Source: Octopus vulgaris
Lineage: Eukaryota
Assembly (NCBI GenBank): GCA_951406725.2
Contig: OX597824.1
Location: 23,250,001-23,314,000, forward strand
Length of the DNA: 64,000 nucleotides
Reading direction: 5' to 3'
Made by a program: the position numbers and the translations under genes. The number at the start of each line of letters is the position of its first letter. Positions within the stretch are counted from its first letter, which is position 1. Of this stretch, positions 6,440-64,000 are shown piece by piece. The notes under the pieces were generated by a model. It worked only from the letters and a program-made list of their open reading frames with translations. It did no database searches and was not told the DNA's origin.

Positions 6440-6671
6440 AAGCTGGCAAGCTGGCCGCATTGTTAAAACGCCAGGCAAAATGCACAGCAGCATTCCGTTC
6501 GTCTTTACGTTCAGAGTTCAAATAACGCCGAGGTCGACTTTACCTTTCATCATTTCGAAGTCGATAGAAATAAGTACCAGTCAAACACTGGGGTCGATGT
6601 AAACGAATATATCTCCTCCCCACTCCCCGCGCCACTCAAATTGCTGGCCTGGTGCCAAAATTTGAAACCAA
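6440..6671 (+). mobile_element. SINE family B
   Basis: ttacgttcagagttcaaat..cgccgaggtcgactt..ctttcat...aataagtaccagt...ctggggtcgat...ggcctggtgccaaaatttgaaacc. Confidence 0.8.
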
Positions 6672-6789
6672 TATTTTGTACTGCTATTCTCCTGTTTTTT
6701 TTTTTTAATTGTTAGTTGTTATGCAAATTGAATCGCTGTTCAAACTCACCGTAGTGTAGCAGTAATTCTTGCTGCTGTTGCTGCTGCTG

Positions 6790-7166
6790 CAGTTGCTGTT
6801 GAGCGAACGGTCTTCGTCCCAGAGCTTGCAAGATGGGAAAAGTCCAAAACGTGGTCCTTTGCTATTCGTAAGACCCACAGAAGAGAAAGCAGGTCAAGCC
6901 CTGACACCGAGAGCATCGACGGATGGATGAATGCGCATCCAGGCTCAGCGGTTGCGCAGGAAGTCGGGGGACAAGAAACAGGAAGAAAGAGTGAGAGAAA
7001 TTTGGGGCGAAAGAGTACAACAGGGGTCGCCCCGCCCCCTGCCGGAGCCTCGTGGAGCTTTAGGTGTTTTCGCTCAATAAACACACACAACGCCCGGTCA
7101 GGAAATCGAAACCGCGATCCTCCGACTGCGAGTTCGCTGCCCTAACCACTGGGCCATTGCGCCTCC
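6790..7166 (-). mobile_element. SINE family C (tRNA-derived head), tail variant 1 ending in accgttcgct(caa)n-like repeats
   Basis: Reverse complement starts ggaggcgcaatggcccagtggttagggcagcgaactcgc...ggtttcgattt.ctgaccgggcg, the same head and body as 10650-11034, with a different 3' half. Confidence 0.85.
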
Positions 7167-7577
7167 TTGCTGTTGCTGCTGTTGTTGTTGTTGACGTTGC
7201 TGTTGATGATAATGATGTAGAAGCTGCTTTTCTTGTTGTTGTTGTTGTCAGGTATTTGTGGTCCACTTGCCACGATAATCCCAAGATGGGATTTCGGTGG
7301 ATGACGACTGAATTGAGGGATTAATATATTTCGCGGATTTGGGATGAGGGCGGGGGGACTGAGTAGATGCGGAGGTGTATGTGTGTGTGTGTGTGAGGGG
7401 GAGAGAGACGGGCGTATCTTTTTGACAAATGGATAAATATAAAGAAAGAAGGAAAGAAAGATGGAGAGAAAGGATAGAAGGAAGGAAGGAAGGAAGGATG
7501 TCAATTAGGCACACATGACAATTAGTATTTGATTGGTTGGTTGAACATAATACCCTACTTAGAAGCGGTCGGATCTG

Positions 7578-7785
7578 ATTATTATGATGGTGACGATTAC
7601 GACAATTATGATGGTGATAATGATGATGATGATGCTGAGGATGATGATGATGATGATTATAGTGAGGATTATTATGGTGATGGTGACGATGATGATGATG
7701 ATGATGATGCGATGGTGATGCTGTTGATGATGATGGTGATGATGATGATGATGATTATAGTGAGGATTATTATGGTGATGGTGAC

Positions 7786-31879: not shown

Positions 31880-31917
<38 letters not shown>
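31255..31917. repeat. (CA)n/(TA)n/(TATC)n compound microsatellites
   Basis: Directly visible. Confidence 0.85.
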
Positions 31918-31920
<3 letters not shown>

Positions 31921-32014
31921 ATCCAAACAAGAAAACACAAAAAAACACAACAACGCGAGGACGTGAGACAAATATAGTATTATTGGACGCTCAGGAAAGA
32001 AGGGAAGAAGGTGG

Positions 32015-32049
32015 GTTTAACGTTTCGAGCGGAGCTCTTCGTCGGAAAC
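32015..32049 (-). ncRNA. Minimal type-I hammerhead ribozyme-like motif in a ~200-bp insert (31918-32118) between (TA)n tracts
   Basis: Minus strand GUUU-CCGACGA-A-GAGC(UCC)GCUC-GAAA-CG-UU-AAAC: stem I GUUU/AAAC, core with U4C, stem II, palindromic AACGUU in place of stem III. Confidence 0.55.
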
Positions 32050-32140
32050 ATAGGAGAAGGAAAGATCCCGAGAAGGGAAGACAGAGGAAAAAAATCGCCA
32101 ACGGTACACACGAGGTCATATATATATATATATATATATA

Positions 32141-40126: not shown

Positions 40127-43100
40127 TTAATATTCTTCTATCTCATCTTCCGTTTCAGCTGAATCAATACCAACTTCTTCATAATCTTTCTCCAACGCAG
40201 CCAAATCTTCGCGCGCTTCCGAAAACTCACCTTCCTCCATACCTTCACCAACATACCAATGAACAAAAGCTCGCTTGGCATACATTAAGTCAAATTTACG
40301 ATTCAGACGGGCCCAAGCGTCAGCAATAGCTGTCGTATTGCTCAGCGAGCACACGGCCCGTTGGACCTTGGCCATATCTCCTCCAGGGACAACGGTTGGG
40401 GATTGGGAATTGATACCAACTTTAAACCCTGTTGGGCACCAATCCACAAACTTGATGGATTTTTTATTTTTAATTGCTGCAATAGCAACGTTAACATCTT
40501 TCGAGACCACATCGCCTCGGAACAACATACAACAAGCCATGTACTTCCCACGGTGAGGGTCACATTTAACCATCTGATTACCGGTTTCAAAGCACGCGTT
40601 TGTTATTTCAGAAACATTTAACTGCTCGTGGTACGCTTTCTCAACCGATATTATTGGTGCATACGAAATCAATGGGAAATGAATACGCGGATAAGGTACC
40701 AGGTTGGTTTGAAACTCGGTTAAATCAACATTAAGGGACCCATCAAACCTTAGAGAAGCAGTAATAGAGCTCACTACCTGAGCAATCGGACGATTAAGGT
40801 TGATGTATCTTGGATACCCAACATCTAAATGCCTTTTACAGATATCATAAATTGCTTCATTGTCGACCATGAAAGCGCAGTCACAATGCTCTAGAGTGGT
40901 ATGAGTGGTTAAGACGGAATTGTACGGTTCTACTACAGCTGTAGAAATTCGTGGTGCCGGATAGACTGAAAATTGAAGCTTTGTCTTTTTACCAAAGTCA
41001 ACACTCAGGCGCTCCATTAGCAGAGACGTAAATCCAGAACCGGTGCCGCCACCGAAACTATGAAAAATCAAGAAGCCCTGGAGGCCAGAGCATTGTTCAG
41101 TTACTTTATGAATTTGGTCACAGACCGAATCAATGATTTCCTTGCCAACGGTATAGTGACCCCTGGCGTAATTGTTGGCTGCATCCTCTTTACCACTGAT
41201 GAGTTGGTTCGGGTGAAATAACTGGCTGTATTTTCCAACGCGTATTTCATCTGGAAAATAAGATTTTGAGCAATAATATATCAAACTGGCAATATAAAAA
41301 TTAAAAGAGTTTTCTTATATTAGAGGAGTATGAAATGTAGAGATTCTCAGACAGTTACTTGCTTATCAGTTCAACAAAATACTTCCATGTACGACATTCC
41401 TCAGAATATACTGCTAACAATACTTACATTCAAATACCGGATACATAAACATTCACTATTCCTCTCACATTTAACCGATTTTATAATCGACACATTTTAC
41501 TGCTGTGATCAGTTCTGTTGTACAACAGAATTTTGAAATATTGTCCAATATTCGAGAAAACGGCGTTCGGAAATATAGCAGTAAAAAAGGAACCACTGCT
41601 TCATCACAAATCTTCGAGTTTTTTTTCCAACAGAAAAACATAGAAGATTGACTAACCAGAACATTAAATGCGCGACAGGGCAATTCCTTAATTTATTTTT
41701 GTAAATACAATTTTGAAACGTTTATACTTACCGATAACTGAGGGCTCCAAATCTACGAATATGGCTCTGGGGACACGTTTCCCAGAGCCTATCTCATGAA
41801 AGAACGTACTAGACGAATCATTAACACCGGAAGATTCAAATGATACTTGACCATTTTGTTGGATTCCATGTTCAAGGCAATAGAGCTCCCAACAAGCGTT
41901 ACCTATTTGGACGCCTGCTTGTCCTATGTGAACGCTGATACATTCTCTCTGAAAAAAAAAAAAAGTTGTATAATAGAATTATTTTAAAAGCTAGAGAAAT
42001 CGGACAAAAGTGGGAGTTGAGCCCAAAAGGGAGCATTGCCGTGGTGTACTGCCTGTTAGAAATAGCAGTCAAATTCCTTCCGATCATACCCTATTGATTA
42101 ACAAAATGTTTATATCACGCGAACTCTAAATTTGGAAAAGATAGAAATGGTAACTGAAACGCATTTTTAACACAAATTTTCGCCAACAAGGTTTCGTGAG
42201 GTTTCAACAAGAGCCATGCAGAGCTACATAAGAACCTTTAAAATGTTTTGGAGAAATGAAAATAACTGCAATAAGTTGTCTGAGAGCTAAACCATTATAC
42301 CACAAGAGATAATAGCACAAGATTTATAAATTCAAATCTAATTAAGCACACAAATATTTTAAAACAACCTTCATGTTTAATGTAAGTATTCCGTTCTACT
42401 TCATTTCAACACCACTTTACATCGAGACAGTTTCTTCCAGTATAGCTGTGGGTCAATCTAGTAAACGGAAATGGATTTAGCGGTGGCCATGTGGACGCCC
42501 GTCAAATAAACTGTAAGGGAAAGTGCACAATGACAATATTTTTTAAAATGTGCGCTCCCTTACGAAAACTATATCAGTTAAGCAAATGACCTTCCCTAAA
42601 TTCTTTAAAAAATAATCTAACACTTTAGACAATTATTGCAGTTCTGAGTATATAAAACAAATTTAGCTGGAGCCAAATGCGTAAACCAAAATAAGATAAA
42701 TCTGCCTCTTCAGTTCTCCAGAATCACATTCGAAAACAGACTCGTACATCAATATTTATCGTTAGACACCAGAAAGATCAAAAACTAAAAGAAATTAAAT
42801 ATCTCGGTCAAATGAAAGGCGATCAAAGGAAAACGATACACATGAAAATAAAACTCGACTAAAGCTAAAATATTCTCCACAGTTTCTTTACGATCTGCTG
42901 GGGTAGCTCTTCCCGAGAGATTTATACACGAAGCAGTTAAAGTAGGATTGAAATTAGTCACTCCTTTTACACTATTTTAGACATTTTTTGAAACCCGACG
43001 TGTTAACAGTAAAAGCTATACGGCAGACACGGAAAACATACCCAGAAAATATTGCAGTTTCACAATAGAGACTATATTAAGTAAATGAAAATATTAGTAA

Positions 43101-44285: not shown

Positions 44286-46217
44286 TGTTTTATTATTACC
44301 CACAAGGGGCGAACATAGATGGGACAATACAATCGGGAAAATGAATAATGAATTATGAAGTTTGTACAATGTGGTGTAATGCCCACTCAATTCCCCGAAA
44401 TCGAGCGGTTACATTTCGTCATTTGTTTTTTATTCGTCAACAATATTTTCCAAATAAAACATTTTTATACATTTTCAACATACATTTCAAAAATTTTACA
44501 AAGTTCAACATTTTTTTTTTCCAGAATTTAAAGTTCTTTTTATCATTTCCAAATTAAAGTTTTCACAATACCTTTTCTTTTATATATACTCCATTATCTC
44601 TACCAAATCTGAGTAAACTTCCATCGTTCGTGGCCACCTTGTAAGTCGGCATTTCATATGTTTTGACACGTTCTTGCCAGCTGCCTCGATGAACGCCTCG
44701 GCGTCGTTCTCGTGGACGAGTGCACCTGTTTCTTTCCATTCGGTGCCCATCCTGACCCACGTATATCCATTTGTTACGTTTATTAAATCTTCCATCTCCT
44801 CACAGTGCCTGTGATGGATCAACGTTCCATAGTATTTGAATTTTCTATTCGTACCTACGTTTTCTCTAGTTTTTCTCTTAGGACTTACTTCCTCTTTTTT
44901 CTCCTCCCTCGGTTTCTCTCTTTCTCTCTTTTTGCTTTCTCTTCTTTCTTTTTCCTTCTCTTGTCTTTTTGGCTCTTTGTCTGCCATCTCTCTACCCTGT
45001 GCCTTAAGTTCCTTTCCTGTTGTTTCTTTTCCTTTTTGCATACCATCTTTTCCTTTCTCTTGGTTCTGTTCCTTCTCTTGTTCTTTTCCTGCTTTTTCTC
45101 TTTCCTTTAATGTACTTTCCTTTTCTTTCTCTTGCTTCTGCCTTGGCTCCTTCTCCACTACTTCTGCACCCTGTGAATTTTGTTCCTTTTCTACTATCTT
45201 CTTCCCTTTGTTTTCATTTTCCTTCAGTGCGCTGTTACTTCCCTTCTCTTGTTGTTTCTCCGTTATTTCCTTTTCCTTGTTTTCGCTGTTCTTTCCTTCG
45301 TGTTCGTTTTCCTTCTCTCCACTTTGTGTCTCTTTTTGCTCCGCTGTGAATTCATACAGCGGGCATTCCTTTTTATGTGCCCTCTTGATCCGCACAGGTA
45401 GCAATTCGGTTTTCTGCCTTCCACTATTACACTAATTGTTTTCTCGTTTTCTATTTCTATTTGGAAGGGAAATCTTTCGATGTCTTCCATTGTGGCCATC
45501 AGCCACAACTCTACTCCGAATCCCTTCCAATTTACAACGTTCGTCTCCTTAATTGACCCTATTTCTACTTCCTCTTTTGCTGCCCCAATAATGGCTGTTA
45601 CCAGCATTTCTGTTTTAATATCTGGGGGCACCTTTGGGACTCTTACCCGTACCCCTCGTCTTCCTTTATACGTCGGCCACATGGTGAAATTTTCCGCTTT
45701 CAGGACAGTGGAAGCCAATGAGGCCGCCACTTCCTTTGTTGCGCATCTCACCTCCAACGTACCATATTTCTTCCCTCTGTCTACAAAAGTCGCTTTTTTC
45801 ATGATGTCCCCCAGACATTTCTCTATTTCTTCAATCGTCACTCTCACCAGTTTTCTCGTGTTTCTATCTTACGTTCTATACGTTATCGTCTTGTTATTTC
45901 TCTCTTCTATTGTTTCCACAGGCGGGACCAGCTTCACGCTGTCACCTTCCCTTTTGACGTACTTCTCGTATTCCTTCAATTGTTCTTTTCTAATGAACAC
46001 TTCTTTTATTCTAAGTGACTCGTCACTTTTTGTTGTGGCGACCCCCGCGTAAGTCTCCATGACTTGAGGGTCGACACACCTTCTATAAAAGGTTCAAACA
46101 CGCAGCGGCAAACGCCTCGCGCGATTCAATTTTTTGACAATTTTTAACAGTTTTTTTTTCCAATTTTCACATACAAAATAACTCACAACACACGTGGGTA
46201 GATTTCCTCCAGGTGTT
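44286..46217 (-). mobile_element. ORF1-only non-LTR retro-element (Tx1/L1-type ORF1 with CCHC zinc knuckle), 1932 bp, 18-bp TSD
   Basis: TSD ccgaaagaacagagaggt at 44268-44285 and 46218-46235; empty sites at ~25085 and ~55925. One broken ORF 46060-44580 (stop 45869-71; -1 in T-run 45370-74) restores C-YL-C-GSRG-H-IKKE-C, followed by a K/E-rich region. No RT or endonuclease motifs seen. Confidence 0.85.
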
Positions 46218-49813: not shown

Positions 49814-52800
49814 CAAAATGCCCAGTAGAACCAACTGTCTTGCCATAAATTATAGTCATATAGATATTCCTCTAACTCGTTTCAGTCATGTGACTGGGGT
49901 CATGCTGGAGCACCGCCTTTAGTCGAGCAAATCGACCCCAGGACTTATTCTTTGTAAGCCTTGTACTTATTCTATCAGTCTACGTTACGGGGACGTAAAC
50001 ACACCAGCATCGGTTGTCAAGTGATGTTGGGGGAGACAAACAGACACAAACATACTTATATGTAAATATACATATATACGACGGGCTTCTTTCAGTTTCC
50101 GTCTACCAAATCCACTCACAAGGCTTTGGTCGCCCCGAGGCTATAGTAGAAGACTCTTACCCAAGGTGCCACGCAGTGGGACTGAACCCGGTAGTAGAAG
50201 ACTCTTGCCCAAGGTGCCCCGCAGTGGGACTGAACCCGGAACCATGTGGTTCGTACGCAAGCTACTTACCATACAGTCACTCAGGATAGGCAATAGGCGC
50301 AAAATTAAGAAAACACGGGCACGACAATAACAAATATCATATACAGACACACGTGTATAGGTATATTGGCACACAGTTATATGCGTGGGCTAAACCTGCT
50401 TCCTAACCATAGGGCTTTGGGTTCAGTCCAATTAAGTAGCACCTTGGGCAAGTACCTTCTACTATAGTCTCTGGCCGACCAACGCCTCGTGTGGATTTGG
50501 TGGAGGGAAACGTAAAGAAGCCTGTCGTGTGTGTCACTACCGCTTGACAACCGGTGGTGTGTGTACATAGCCTAGCGGTTAGGCAAAAAGAGTTCGATAG
50601 AATAAGTACCAGGTTTAAAAAAGGGAAATTAGTCCTGGGATAAAGTCATTCGACTGAAACTCTTCAAGCCGGTGCCCCAGCATGGCCACAGTCTAATACA
50701 GCTGACAAGGATATTTATGTCATTTACACACTGAAAGTTTCAAAAAAAAAAAAAAAAAATGCTTAATGGCTAAAGCTTAGTGGCGTTTCGAAACTACGTC
50801 CTCAGTTAGGCGTAGGAGTGGCTGTGTGGTTAAGTAGCTTGCTTACCAACCACATGGTTCCGGGTTCAGTCCACTGCGTGGCACTTTGGGCAAGTGTCTA
50901 TAGCTTCAGGCTGACCAAAGCATTGGGAGTAGATTTGGTAGACGGAACCTGAAAGAAGCCCGTAGTATGTGTGTGTCCCAACATCACTTGAGAACCGATG
51001 CGTCCCCGTAACTTTGCGGTTCGGCAAAAAGAGACCAATAGAATAAGTACTAGGCTTACAAAGAACAAGTCTTGGGGTCGATTTGCTCGACTAAAGGCGG
51101 TGCTCCAGTATGGCCACAGTCAAATGACAAGTAAAAGGAGAGTAAAGAGTTTAAATTCTGCCAAGGTCAACTTCGCTTTTCATCTTCTGGCGGTCGGTAA
51201 AGTAAGTAGCACTTGAGCATTTCTGTCGATGTAATCGCCAAGCCTCCTAAAAGAATTTCAGACCTGGTGCCCATAGTAATAAAATTAAAGGAGGCACGCT
51301 AGCAGAATTGTTACCGCACCGGAAAAATGCCTAACGGAATGTTGTTAGTTTTTACGCTCTAAGCTTAAAACACTGCTCATCCGTTCAGGGTTGATAAAAT
51401 ATGTACAAGAAGAGCTACCGCGGTCGATATAATCGACTAACCACTCTCCCCAGATTTGCTGAGCCTTACAGCAAAAAATAGTTACCGTTGACTAACAAAA
51501 TGTGTCCCAGTATCTGGATACTTGATTGATTCCAAATACGAAGAGAAAATCTATTCAAGAATTAGAGAAATATGTCAATTGATTGTGATAAGCTTTTATT
51601 ATTTCAAAGAAATTCGAAAAAAAAATGTTATTTCGAAAAGTAATTCTTTATGTTTAGTATGCAACACAAACAGGAAAACAACGCAATTTTGATATTTCAA
51701 AAGCTAATTCGTTAGGTTAAATTAATATTGGAAGACTACACACGTGTGTATATGTATATATAAGACCCACCATTTCTAATAAAATTTAAGATTTAGTATT
51801 CTTCAATCTCATCTCCCGTTTCAGCTGTGTCAATACCGACTTCTTCATAATCTTTCTCCAACGCAGCCAAATCTTCGCGCGCTTCTGTGAACTCTCCTTC
51901 CTCCATACCTTCACCAACATACCAATGAACAAAAGCTCGCTTGGCATACATTAAGTCAAATTTAAAATTTAGACGGGCCCAAGCTTCAGCAATAGCTGTC
52001 GTATTGTTCAGCATACATACGGCCCGTTGAACCTCAGCCATGTCTCCCCCAGGGATAACAGTTGGGCGTTGGGAATTGATACCAACTTTAAACCCTGTTG
52101 GGCACCAATCCACAAACTGAATTTGTTTTATCTTTTTAATTGCTGCAATAGCAGCGTTAACATCTTTCGAGACCACATCGCCTCGGTACAACAGACAACA
52201 AGCCATGTACTTCCCACGGCGAGGGTCACATTTAACCATCTGATTACCGGTTTCAAAGCACGCGTTTGTTATTTCAGAAACAAGCAACTGCTCGTGGTAC
52301 GCTTTCTCAACCGATATTATTGGTGCATACGAAATCAATGGGAAATGAATACGTGGATAAGGTACAAGGTTGGTTTGAAACTCGGTTAAATCGGCATTAA
52401 TGGACCCATGAAACCTTAGAGAAGCAGTAATAGAGCTCACTACCTGAGCAATCGGACGATTAAGGTTGATGTATCTTGGATACCCAACATCTAAATGCAT
52501 TTTACAGATATCATAATTGCTTCATTGTCGACCATGAAAGCGCAGTCACAATGATCTAGAGTGGTATGAGTGGTTAAGACGGAATTGTACGGTTCTACTA
52601 CAGCTGTATAAATTCGTGGTGCCGGATAGACTGAAAATTGAAGCTTTGTCTTTTTACCAAAGTCAACACTCAGGCGCTCCATTAGCAGAGACGTAAAACC
52701 AGAACCGGTGCCGCCACCGAAACTATGAAAAATCAAGAAGCCCTGGAGGCCAGAGCATTGTTCTGTTACTTTATGAATTTGGTCACAGACCGAATCAATG

Positions 52801-55800
52801 ATTTCCTTGCCAACGGTATAGTGACCCCTGGCGTAATTGTTGGCTGCATCCTCTTTACCACTGATGAGTTGGTTCGGGTGAAATAACTGGCTGTATTTTC
52901 CAACGCGTATTTCATCTGGAAAATAAGATTTTGAGCAATAATATATCAAACTGGCAATATAAAAATTAAAAGAGTTTTCTTATATTAGAGGAGTATGAAA
53001 TGTAGAGATTCTCAGACAGTTACTTGCTTTATCAGTTCAACAAAATACTTCCATGTACGACATTCCTCAGAATATACTGCTAACAATACTTACATTCAAA
53101 TACCGGATACATAAACATTCACTATTCCTCTCACATTTAACCGATTTTATAATCGACACATTTTACTGCTGTGATCAGTTCTGTTGTACAACAGAATTTT
53201 GAAATATTGTCCAATATTCAAGAAAACGGCGTTCGGAAATATAGCAGTAAAAAAGGAACCACTGCTTCATCACAAATCTTCGAGTTTTTTTTCCAACACA
53301 GAAAAACATAGAAGATTGACTAACCAGAACATTAAATGCGCGACAGGGCAATTCCTTAATTTATTTTTGTAAATACAATTTTGAAACGTTTATACTTACC
53401 GATAACTGAGGGCTCTAAATCTACGAATATGGCTCTGGGGACACGTTTCCCAGAGCCTATCTCATGAAAGAACGTGCTAGACGAATCATTAACACCGGAA
53501 GATTCAAATGATACTTGACCATTTTGTTGGATTCCATGTTCAAGGCAATAGAGCTCCCAACAGGCGTTACCTATTTGGACGCCTGCTTGTCCTATGTGAA
53601 CGCTGATACATTCTCTCTGAAAAGAAAAAAAAGTTGTATAATAGAATTATTTTACAAGCTAGAGAAATCGGACAAAAGTGGGAGTTGAACCCAAAAGGGA
53701 GCATCGCCGTGGTGTACTGCCTGTTAGAAATAGCTGTCAAATTCCTTCCGATCATACCCTATTGATTAACAAAATGTTTATATCACGCGAACTCTAAATT
53801 TGGAAAAGATAGAAATGGTAACTGAAACGCATTTTTAACACAAATTTTCGCCAACAAGAGTCATGCAGAGCTACATAAGAACCTTTAAAATGGTATTTTT
53901 GGAGAAATGAAAATAACTGCAATAAGTTGTCTGAGAGCTAAACCATTATACCACAAGAGATAATAGCACAAGATTTATAAATTCAAATCTAATTAAGCAC
54001 ACAAATATTTTAAAACAACCTTCATGTTTAATGTAAGTATTCCGTTCTACTTCATTTCAACACCACTTTACATTGAGACAGTTTCTTCCAGTATAGCTGT
54101 GGGTCAATCTAGTAAACGGAAATGGATTTAGCGGTGGCCATGTGGACGCCCGTCAAATAAACTGTAAGGGAAAGTGCACGATGACAATATTTTTTTTAAT
54201 GTGCGCTCCCTTACGAAAACTATATCAGTTAAGTAAATGGCCTTCCATAAATTCTTTAAAAAAATAATCTAACACTTTAGACAATTATTGCAGTTCTGAG
54301 TATATAAAACAAATTTGGCTGGAGCCAAATGAGTAAACCAAAATAAGATAAATCTGCCTCTTCAGTTCTCCAGAATCACATTCGAAAACAGACTCGTACA
54401 TCAATATTTATCGTTAGACACCAGAAAGATCAAAAACTAAAAGAAATTAAATACCTCGGTCAAATGAAAGGCGATCAAAGGAAAACGATACACATGAAAA
54501 TGAAACTCGACTAAAGCTAAAATATTCTCCACAGTTTCTTTACGATCTGCTGGGGTAGTTCTTCCCGAGAGATTTATACACGAAGCAGTTAAAGTAGGAT
54601 TGAAATTAGTCACTCCTTTTACACTATTTAAGACATTTTTTGAAACCCGACGTGTTAACAGTAAAAGCTATACGGCAGACACGGAAAACATACCCAGAAA
54701 ATATTGCAGTTTCACGATAGAGACTATATTAAATAAATGAAAATATTAGTAAATTCTGACAAACGATTTAAATTCAAAATTGTATTTAATATTTTTTTAT
54801 ATAGTGCTAAATACAATTTTGTGAAGATTAGATGGTTAATGTAGACCGAATTGAAAGTAAATACAGTTTCGTAATACAAAAATTGTTAATGGGTTAATTC
54901 TAAGCAAGGGATGCGAATAGAGGGGTAATGTTTCTAATGAAGAGGGATTGTGTAAGTCTATATTCCTTCGTTGTAAATTTTGAAGAGATTTTCTCTAAGT
55001 TTTCACGGTCGCACTTATGTAGCTCTAGACAAAAATCACTGATTTTTAAAAATTCTTAACGACATACTGACTAAAAATCAAAGGTTTTTTTTTCTAAATG
55101 CTTTTAGAGTTTTCTATACGTTTGTTTCTCATGTAATGTCGTATGTTGTTACATGGCAACTTTTGGCTGTCACATGTTGCTTTCAAATCTAGATGAAAAT
55201 TCTGTTTTAAAACTTCAATATTTGTCGCTATTATGCAAGAGAGTCGAAAGTCCCAAACTTTTTCAGAAGGAAAAAATAAAGTTTCACCATTCCACAGCAA
55301 AACCGTTGTACTACACTTTGACAATTTTCGATATCTTGCCATCTGAAGCAACTAGAGATCCTGTTATTTCGACCAAAAGAACCGGCTATTGCAAATAAAA
55401 ATAAATACTGAATAAAACGTATTTGGCTAAATTTAGACGCACGAAAGTTTAACAGAATAGCAACCATATAAACATTGCGAAAGCAAGAAAAGAATTTCAC
55501 TAATAAATATGCACAAAATATTTTGTAAATGTGAATAAAGGTTATTATATTCAAAACTGGATTTCCCATAAATTTGGAGAGGCAGACGAGAAATAAACCG
55601 TAGCAAATTTACCATTGTTGTCGCGCTGTTTCTGTACCGTTCAAAGTGGAGTCAATAAACAAGACGGTGGTTTTGCTCTTGGCCTTGCTACAAATAGTAA
55701 TATTTTTTTACTCTCCTCCTACTCTTACTCTTATACTACTCCGTGTTAGCCAATGGTGATCGTATGTTCGAAGACAGTCTCAAACTGAAGGGTGTGATTT

Positions 55801-57245: not shown

Positions 57246-57296
57246 ATATATGTATATATATTTATATACTTTATTTAAAGCAGCAGAAAATTCAAC

Positions 57297-57343
57297 AAAA
57301 CCTGTTACTCTGAGTTTCACGTTCCCGTTCGTTGGACAGTTTT
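57297..57343 (-). ncRNA. Degenerate type-I hammerhead-like motif, left palindrome arm
   Basis: Reverse complement of 57751-57797. Confidence 0.45.
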
Positions 57344-57750
57344 TGCTAGAATGGAACCGATATGTCAATTCTATCCAGACTAGTATAAACGCTACACCTT
57401 TAAAAATGGACTTGTTTGATTGGTCCTTTACAAATAACGGTCAATTTTCGAGCGATAAACAAAAATGAGCTCAATATATATATATATATATATATAAATT
57501 ATAAAATTCGAGCAAAAAACCTTACTTCGAATCTTTGGTTAAAATACAAAAGATTCGATGTAAGGTTTTTTCCTCGAATTTTATAATTTTTTTAATATAT
57601 ATATATATATATTTTTTTTTTGAGTTCATTTTTGTTTATCGCTTGAAAATTGACCGTTATTTGTAAAGGACCAATCAAACAAGTCCATTTTTAAAGGTGT
57701 AGCGTTTATACTAGTCTGGATAGAATTGACATATCGGTTCCATTCTAGCA

Positions 57751-57797
57751 AAAACTGTCCAACGAACGGGAACGTGAAACTCAGAGTAACAGGTTTT
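57751..57797 (+). ncRNA. Degenerate type-I hammerhead-like motif, right palindrome arm
   Basis: AAAACUGU-CCAACGA-ACG(GGAA)CGU-GAAAC-UCAGA-GUA-ACAGGUUUU: stems I, II and III can all form, but the core deviates from CUGANGA at two positions. Confidence 0.45.
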
Positions 57798-57824
57798 GTT
57801 GAATTTTCTGCTGCTTTAAATAAA

Positions 57825-57880
<56 letters not shown>

Positions 57881-57947
57881 TTAGAGACAATGAAAAACTT
57901 AAGCCAATACATAAGATTATTTAATTTATATTATTTAAATATATAAC

Positions 57948-58020
57948 AAAATTACTACGATCGTTTCATGGCTGTTAATTTCTTTAAATTTTCAAGTCAC
58001 AGTCATTCATCAGGTGGTTT
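57948..58020 (-). ncRNA. Minimal type-I hammerhead ribozyme-like motif
   Basis: AAACCAC-CUGAUGA-AUGACUGU...ACAGCCAU-GAAAC-GAUC-GUA-GUAAUUU: perfect core, palindromic loop III, stem I with two mismatches. Confidence 0.62.
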
Positions 58021-58205
58021 AAATATCTAAAATATAATCAATATTTTAAAGATATAAATAATATATATAATATAATATAATAATTTTACTTATAATAAAC
58101 TCTATTATCAAATATGATTATATCGAAATCGACTATAATGTTAAATATTAACTTTAATTTATATATATATTTATATATATATATATCTATCTATCTATCT
58201 ATCTA

Positions 58206-63375: not shown

Positions 63376-63628
63376 TGTATGAGATCTTTGAATTGGTTAA
63401 TTAAGAGATGGTTCTTTCTTTCGTGCAGATAATATACACACGCTGTTAACCTTATAATAAGATGGTACGAAACTAGCGCCGGAGATAATGGTGTATATAT
63501 TTCTACTCGCTTCCGCCTCCCCGAGACAAGATGTCTCTTGCATTATATATCAATTGATTTGAAACATTAACGCGAGGTCAATGACCGAATACTTTTGAAT
63601 ATATCAATATGTATGTGTACGTATGCGT

Positions 63629-63681
<53 letters not shown>

Positions 63682-63877
63682 GAAATAGAAAGATGAATAA
63701 TCTTGTTGCAGATTAATCAAAAGTTTAACCGATACCTTGGTATCACAGCATAAGACAGCACGGCTGGAGGTACAACCCTATGGTGTTGCAACCGTGCGTT
63801 GGTGCGGATAATTGAATTTTAATATTATTAGTGAATTGAAGAAAAGGAGTTGAACGAAGATTGAACAGAAATCGTTT

Positions 63878-63970
63878 TATTGCATTCTACACGTGTTTCG
63901 AAAGGCACAATTTACCAAATTCCGATTGAATAAGGAGACCATATTGTGTCTTTATCTTCAGGAAGAAATA
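63878..63970 (-). ncRNA. Type-I hammerhead ribozyme-like motif in an insert starting at the (TA)n end (~63678)
   Basis: UAUUUCUUC-CUGAAGA-U-AAAGACACAAU...AUUGUGCCUUU-C-GAAAC-ACGU-GUA-GAAUGCAAUA: perfect core, 10/11-bp stem II, palindromic CACGUG stem/loop III, bulged stem I. Confidence 0.68.
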
Positions 63971-64000
63971 GGAAATCCGTTGGAAAAAACAAAAACAGAA

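Follow-up and report, generated by a model that had tools for sequence, protein, structure and literature searches.

A (TA)n-inserting Penelope-like lineage of octopods with a cysteine-free motif in place of the CxCX5C linker, and one truncated copy of it

The window analysed here, a 64,000-nt stretch of the Octopus vulgaris genome (G000:C11:23250001-23314000), ends inside an insertion that we identify with high confidence as a 5′-truncated, two-armed copy of a young Penelope-like element (PLE) of the Hydra clade. Its hammerhead is predicted to cut only in dimeric form and, here, has probably been crippled. For the lineage as a whole we favour, less firmly, the reading that this is an old octopod Hydra-type lineage in which the zinc-finger-like linker was swapped for a Cys-free module of 24 residues, and in which the lineage's own enzyme still targets (TA)n. 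The loss of the linker in a lineage that ends in (TA)n is the new part; the window's own hammerhead is unremarkable, and the population of elements to which it belongs is known biology (Craig et al. 2021, PMC8557442).

The 3′ end of the element is marked by a (TA)n target tract at 63628..63678, comprising 25.5 copies of TA. Adjoining it, on the minus strand at 63680..64000, is the 3′ end of a long arm (3′ UTR/pLTR) with 93.5% identity to positions 6552-7586 of the full-length copy L054. The long arm runs for 1,029 nt in antisense orientation, to G000:C11:23314707, and covers the last ~21 codons of the ORF. It is followed by a short fold-back, by an inverted, tail-less arm of 298 nt (C11:23314715-23315012) and by a second (TA)n, the element spanning 1,334 nt between the two TA tracts. 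The inverted arm is a copy of part of the long arm, minus the last ~150 nt. The tail between the two fixed ends of the element (63680..63830, minus strand; 151 nt here and 158 nt in L054) is structured and is found on the long arm only. Where the initial annotation had looked to the next stretch for a tandem copy or an RT/GIY-YIG ORF, neither was found in 10 kb at the window's end, and the inverted second arm lies there instead. At the arm junction, just past the window (L001 2502-2542), a 41-nt fold-back is followed by a jump at short microhomology. The junction suggests that the cDNA was primed on itself before the template switch.

The 3′ end of the family has 1,704 exact matches in the genome, and the best 40 matches to the element are 96-100% identical. 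We reconstructed the family by walking upstream via longer copies, reaching a GIY-YIG frame, then RT and then the full copy L054, which contains, in order, an inverted arm, a short pLTR, a 904-aa ORF, a 969-nt 3′ UTR with the hammerhead, and (TA)n. Open frames of at least 899 aa were present at 27 of the 121 scored RT matches, one of them (L108) with a frameshifted end. A head-to-tail array (L094/L095, G000:C1:119514150-119525045) is built of 3,624-nt units that are 99.9% identical and carry one hammerhead each; its four 3′ ends recur at the 3,624-nt period, and at least two units have open 899-aa frames. Contigs from four runs presumed to be RNA cover 28-30 of the 30 bins of the full element, a control stretch being covered as well on repeats and in some other bins. 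The description of the element as TA-targeted, ribozyme-bearing and Penelope-like, offered in the initial annotation, is right, full-length copies carrying the RT/GIY-YIG ORF of 904 aa.

This single ORF encodes RT followed by a C-terminal GIY-YIG EN. The closest structural match for the full model is TERT, the telomerase RT (E 6e-9), and the EN model matches the catalytic domain of I-TevI (Z 9.9, rmsd 2.3, 89 aligned residues). Foldseek with the EN model returned nothing at E 0.001 or better, with GIY-YIG enzymes ranked first; neither the ORF nor the EN piece matched a Pfam family, six related proteins gave nothing at the Pfam cut-off, and a word-index search with the EN region produced no match. 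The Hydra motifs of the ORF include SDKT at 121 (DKG changed to DKT) and RIRW at 35, where the residue after RW is L, not K. CxxC and CxH surround the catalytic E and N, as CNLCxxE and RCPH in most copies (L054 has F for the last C), and the catalytic R, H, E and N of EN are retained; CCHH is absent from the family protein in an alignment judged by eye. A Naiad PLE, with an N-terminal EN and no canonical hammerhead, was considered and rejected, as EN is C-terminal here and the hammerhead canonical. The closest named proteins to the lineage come from Octopus sinensis and Argonauta hians. Four records from these species (P0109, P0110, P0259 and P0007), labelled uncharacterized, kinase-like or GATA-like, are lineage fragments and one related Hydra-type RT that have been annotated as host proteins.

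The type I hammerhead of the window lies at 63879..63970 on the minus strand. Read at coordinates, CUGAAGA at 63961-63955 forms the 5′ part of the core; stem II pairs 63954-63943 with 63911-63900 (12 columns, 10 of 11 pairs) and closes a 31-nt loop; GAA follows, then an 8-nt palindromic helix III, ACACGUGU, at 63896-63889, and then the GUA site, with the predicted cut 3′ of A at 63888. Stem I consists of 3 bp and a bulged extension. The core CUGANGA / GAAA / UH and the three helices are those of a type I hammerhead, in which helix III would form only in a dimer or in a 2-bp version. Between the hammerhead and (TA)n lies a further hairpin (63758..63797, minus strand; −18.2 kcal/mol, z −1.85), a candidate RT-binding or initiation element, and the whole tail, at 63680-63820, folds with z −3.26. 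This hairpin, and the succession of CUGAAGA, a 10-of-11-bp stem II with a ~30-nt loop, GAAAC-ACGU-GUA and a bulged stem I on the minus strand, had been recognised in the initial annotation and were confirmed at coordinates.

The same annotation had called this motif the best-formed hammerhead of the window. That ranking fails, since its closing pair is U10.1-C11.1, not the G-C of the family, and the predicted stem II collapses. The rare G10.1-to-U change (63954..63954, minus strand) is present on both arms of the insertion and breaks the G10.1-C11.1 pair. Among 58 aligned hammerheads from 34 loci, position 10.1 is G in 55, U in two and unparsed in one, and the two with U are the two arms of the window insertion; a 25-nt pattern has 1,837 matches genome-wide with G10.1 and six without it, two of these six being in this insertion. 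By folding prediction, the pair probability of stem II falls from ~0.97 with G10.1 to 0.18 or less with U10.1. The family has a canonical hammerhead in its pLTR/3′ UTR; the window copy, with G10.1U, is probably crippled and inactive, a case that rests on U10.1 and the folding prediction. In File S2 of PMC8557442, some published Hydra hammerheads combine U at 10.1 with U or C at 11.1; U10.1 by itself may therefore be compatible with activity, and "crippled" stays a prediction.

Conservation across the family was assessed in an alignment of 19 hammerhead rows, with subfamilies down to about 70% DNA identity. The core is invariant in these rows except at N7. In stem II, 93% of cells are paired, as against 33-49% in slid controls, and seven pairs are changed on both sides; the shuffle control of this alignment ignores the relatedness of the rows and is not to be read as a probability. 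RNAalifold recovers the same stem II. The central pair of helix III is CG in five rows, UA in eight and UG in five, which are all 18 rows having it, and the self-duplex of the helix is predicted at −10.3 kcal/mol. As the central pair is self-complementary and a monomer would have no loop room at that point, the pattern favours a hammerhead that acts as a dimer, as proposed for PLE hammerheads. Judged from the aligned sequences, both the sequence and the structure of the ribozyme appear to be under selection across subfamilies.

Selection on the motif might nevertheless concern something other than cutting. The hammerhead could have persisted because it binds protein or aids folding, or simply as a passenger, with no role for cleavage in transposition, a possibility to which we give some weight while considering it unlikely. 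In Anolis, catalytic mutants had no effect on insertion in vitro and no RNA ends were mapped to the cut site, according to PMC11167929, the hammerhead being dispensable for insertion in that one system; weak cutting in vitro has been described for PLE hammerheads (PMC4209133). The genomic ends of the octopus family lie ~55 and ~210 nt downstream of the predicted cut site, which implies that the inserted RNA was uncut at that site. Against this, subfamilies about 70% alike have retained every catalytic core position together with the UH site and the palindrome of helix III, which is what selection on the chemistry predicts.

The preferred mechanism includes cleavage, and each of its steps is conditional. 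Transcripts of the tandem 3.6-kb units would be trimmed by two hammerheads paired via the palindromic helix III. RT-EN encoded by the element would nick both strands of a (TA)n tract and prime reverse transcription at two internal AU-rich sites; in this way, a single source locus would give rise both to the long arm with its tail and to the inverted arm without one.

The ends of the family bear on the later steps. (AT)4 occurs within 0-4 nt after 692 of 820 forward-strand ends, compared with 0.67% of window positions; reverse-strand ends, the counts of which are inflated by multiple matches, were left out of this figure. Of 17 hammerheads in older subfamilies, 15 have (TA)5 at a distance of 48-82 or 200-216 nt, and two continue into the next unit. 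A second arm without the tail, ending at one AT-rich site, was seen at 26 of the 30 best loci. Both ends of the element fall at sequence resembling the target (TAATAAT and ATAAT), and the two fixed ends lie about 150 nt apart. The arms of the same insertion have 17 non-majority bases in common, some of which are subfamily variants, and 28 that occur on one arm only (10 on the long and 18 on the short arm). These comparisons of sequence fit, without proving, two priming events on RNA from one locus. The Poseidon element PAc of Anolis nicks both strands in vitro, has two RT start sites and undergoes protein-assisted hammerhead cleavage (PMC11167929), and the two arms and two ends of the octopus family are in line with that two-strand nicking and with the two start sites. 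Further PLE traits seen in the family are partial and full tandems, an inverted 5′-truncated copy and a tail on one end.

The CxCX5C linker was found in none of the 11 lineage ORFs with EN (12 lineage ORFs were examined), compared with 85 of 86 homologs with EN (107 were examined, 21 of them without EN). A Cys-free 24-aa motif at 761-784 stands in its place; it is modelled at low confidence (pLDDT about 40-63), and versions of it occur in O. sinensis records and in four further proteins at 39-43% identity. The 24-aa motif has a dN/dS of 0-0.16 and EN one of 0.05-0.20, compared with 0.32-1.14 in the remainder of the linker; the pairs are non-independent, and five of the 12 EN pairs are saturated. 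In a midpoint-rooted FastTree phylogeny of 110 rows with at least 330 RT residues, the homologs of which carry Hydra motifs, the lineage is nested among linker-bearing relatives, and its sister is a linker-bearing family of the same genome (support 0.87); published Hydra sequences were set beside the lineage by eye, outside the tree. Given this nesting, the absence of the linker is taken to be a loss. Upstream of EN, the 73 usable sequences among the best 150 EN matches comprise 45 with CxC-x-C, 13 with at least two Cys and 15 with fewer, a count that is weak because 58 matches were unparsed, 19 were short upstream and most of the low-Cys ones look frameshifted. Since the linker is missing, we file the lineage as an apparently derived variant of the Hydra clade, not as a typical member.

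Craig et al. 2021 (PMC8557442), restating a proposal, tie the CxCX5C linker to TA targeting, and the linker is present in all nine Hydra rows of the alignment in the supplement. Chlamys elements are without such a linker too, by which the proposal was already weakened, and Penelope/Poseidon elements also have no Zn-finger linker; both lower the surprise of our observation. No Hydra element without the linker was found described in the literature; Repbase and Dfam lay outside this search, and the family may be catalogued.

The same genome contains a very AT-rich Hydra-type family (L119-L127) with open frames of 695-862 aa and an intact linker, CTCRDKSNC. The hammerheads of this family are variants with a shorter stem II, related to the motif at 58013. 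A linker-bearing Hydra protein of this kind might nick in trans for the lineage, or the lineage might land at (TA)n via breaks arising there anyway, TA tracts being fragile. We think such outside help improbable, though not negligibly so. Against it, the lineage has an EN of its own that keeps the catalytic positions and the CxxC/CxH motifs and is predicted to fold as a GIY-YIG domain, and purifying selection on this EN is seen among copies as far apart as 53% identity.

If targeting by that enzyme is correct, microsatellite targeting would not depend on the linker proposed to mediate it. It would come from the GIY-YIG core, from the new 24-aa module, or from base-pairing between the nicked (TA)n end and two AU-rich priming sites that lie ~150 nt apart on the RNA. 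The presence in one genome of two Hydra-type families with open ORFs, one with and one without the linker, provides a natural pair in which the proposal could be put to a direct test by exchanging domains. Further assets of the family are its young, intact copies, its tandem array of nearly identical units and the covariation pointing to a dimeric hammerhead. The gain is moderate, as the proposal had already been weakened by the Chlamys elements that have no such linker.

Two readings of the stretch itself fare worse. The first, that it is a non-autonomous retrozyme, a short non-coding unit spreading as circular RNA, is very unlikely: the insertion itself has no ORF, and retrozymes have been reported as PLE derivatives (bioRxiv 10.64898/2026.07.22.740005), but the arm aligns collinearly with coding copies over their 3′ UTR and the end of the ORF, copies are truncated at widely differing 5′ points, and the tandem unit contains the ORF. 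The term "retrozyme-like", which the initial annotation had given as an option, is accordingly wrong for an element that is the truncated 3′ end of a protein-coding family and not a tandem non-coding unit. A non-LTR retrozyme, with a short non-coding tandem unit and one hammerhead in each, was likewise rejected, the unit here being 3,624 nt and coding.

The second reading concerns chance. The initial annotation had called for a genome-wide comparison with shuffled controls; within the window, a hammerhead descriptor, composed after the motif had been seen, gave two strict and three relaxed matches, where 100 local shuffles averaged 0.01 and 0.14. An Rfam scan of the window at E up to 5 did not recognise any hammerhead, and the folding of the hammerhead region is no more stable than that of its shuffles (z 0.74), but the covariation, the invariant core, the fixed position in an element family and the near-absence of matches in shuffles leave practically no room for a chance match in AT-rich repeat DNA. 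The motif exceeds chance, cross-subfamily covariation being stronger evidence for this than the shuffle comparison; it is a real hammerhead motif at the tail of a known kind of retroelement.

All hammerhead-like motifs of the window are members of repeat families adjoining TA tracts, 18% of the non-TA positions of the window lying within 200 nt of such a tract. The earlier count of five motifs from four unrelated sequences stands as to four insertions, while the motifs at 57297 and 57751 are the two arms of one palindrome. This palindromic two-armed insertion of a third family (57268..57825) has the damaged core CCAACGA on both arms, as against CCGAYGA in 10 of 12 other family rows, and at one 57297-type copy (L079) a Hydra EN is found ~1.1 kb away, beyond sequence that looks unrelated. 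The motif at 57948/58013 is part of the 3′ end/pLTR of a second Hydra-type family (57878..58160, minus strand), the ORF of which is directly downstream in L092; it is a long-stem-II hammerhead with C3 at 58013, and the 3′ side of its stem I has been lost by deletion. A ~200-nt element between two TA tracts (31917..32117, minus strand) carries a minimal hammerhead-like motif with C3 at 32045 and the core CCGACGA, which is found in 12 of 12 family rows. No coding partner was established for the 32015 and 57297/57751 families. The statement that all motifs are within ~200 nt of (TA)n was not confirmed for the motif at 63879..63970, where C3 is 283 nt and the cut site ~210 nt from the tract. The proposed TA-targeted population of ribozyme-bearing elements is known biology (Craig et al. 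2021), with damaged motifs in three of the four insertions. In two abundant families (L058-L069 and L072-L081), almost every aligned copy has C at hammerhead position 4 (CCGACGA/CCGATGA). L058 (C11:24243865) and L060 (C11:26682640), which are nearly identical to the 32015 element, lie 1 and 3.4 Mb off on the same contig and are possibly the product of local duplication.

Elsewhere in the window, the minus strand contains what we take to be two alpha-tubulin-like frames, at 40127-41314 and 51793-52979, the second of which is interrupted by a frameshift near 52500. Window positions 41250 and 41732 are brought together, in a splice-like manner, in one contig of run X13. Two adjacent frames of 201 and 283 aa, one with a CCHC knuckle, lie at 44580-45868 on the minus strand and presumably resemble ORF1 of a non-LTR retrotransposon.

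The nearest known systems are the Hydra-clade PLEs, which have (TA)n targets and canonical hammerheads and include Hydra-1_Obim from Octopus bimaculoides (Craig et al. 2021, PMC8557442). As the clade is described in that source, the octopus family shares with it a single ORF with RT and then GIY-YIG, the DKT motif, CxxC and CxH around the catalytic E and N, a type I hammerhead near the 3′ end, (TA)n, partial tandems and inverted 5′-truncated arms. It departs from the clade in having the Cys-free 24-aa motif instead of CxCX5C, in its length of 3.6-3.7 kb (the clade is mostly below 3 kb), and in two low-complexity inserts and a 969-nt 3′ UTR. Its tail of ~150 nt compares with 30-40 bp given there for PLEs, and its stem II measures 11-12 bp and carries a 31-nt loop, while the Hydra hammerheads of File S2 have stems of ~3-7 bp with loops no longer than 10 nt. 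Hydra-1_Obim itself, compared by eye, differs from the family in both hammerhead and protein.

PAc, a Poseidon element of Anolis carolinensis (Frangieh et al. 2024, PMC11167929), is similar in the two internal ends that define the tail, in its AT-rich targets, in its pLTR hammerhead and, with Penelope/Poseidon in general, in being without a Zn-finger linker. It belongs to a different clade, however, and its targets are AT-rich and not strictly (TA)n as here; the RT start of PAc, as reported there, is non-homologous to the cut DNA, whereas both ends of the octopus family are at AU-rich patches resembling the target. The hammerhead resembles the minimal, dimeric PLE hammerheads of Cervera and De la Pena 2014 (PMC4209133) in being of type I, in its short stem I and long stem II, in a palindromic helix III suited to a dimer and in the conserved G10.1-C11.1. 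Animal non-LTR retrozymes (bioRxiv 10.64898/2026.07.22.740005) likewise carry a type I hammerhead related to those of PLE pLTRs; in contrast to them, the octopus family encodes its own protein within a tandem unit of 3.6 kb.
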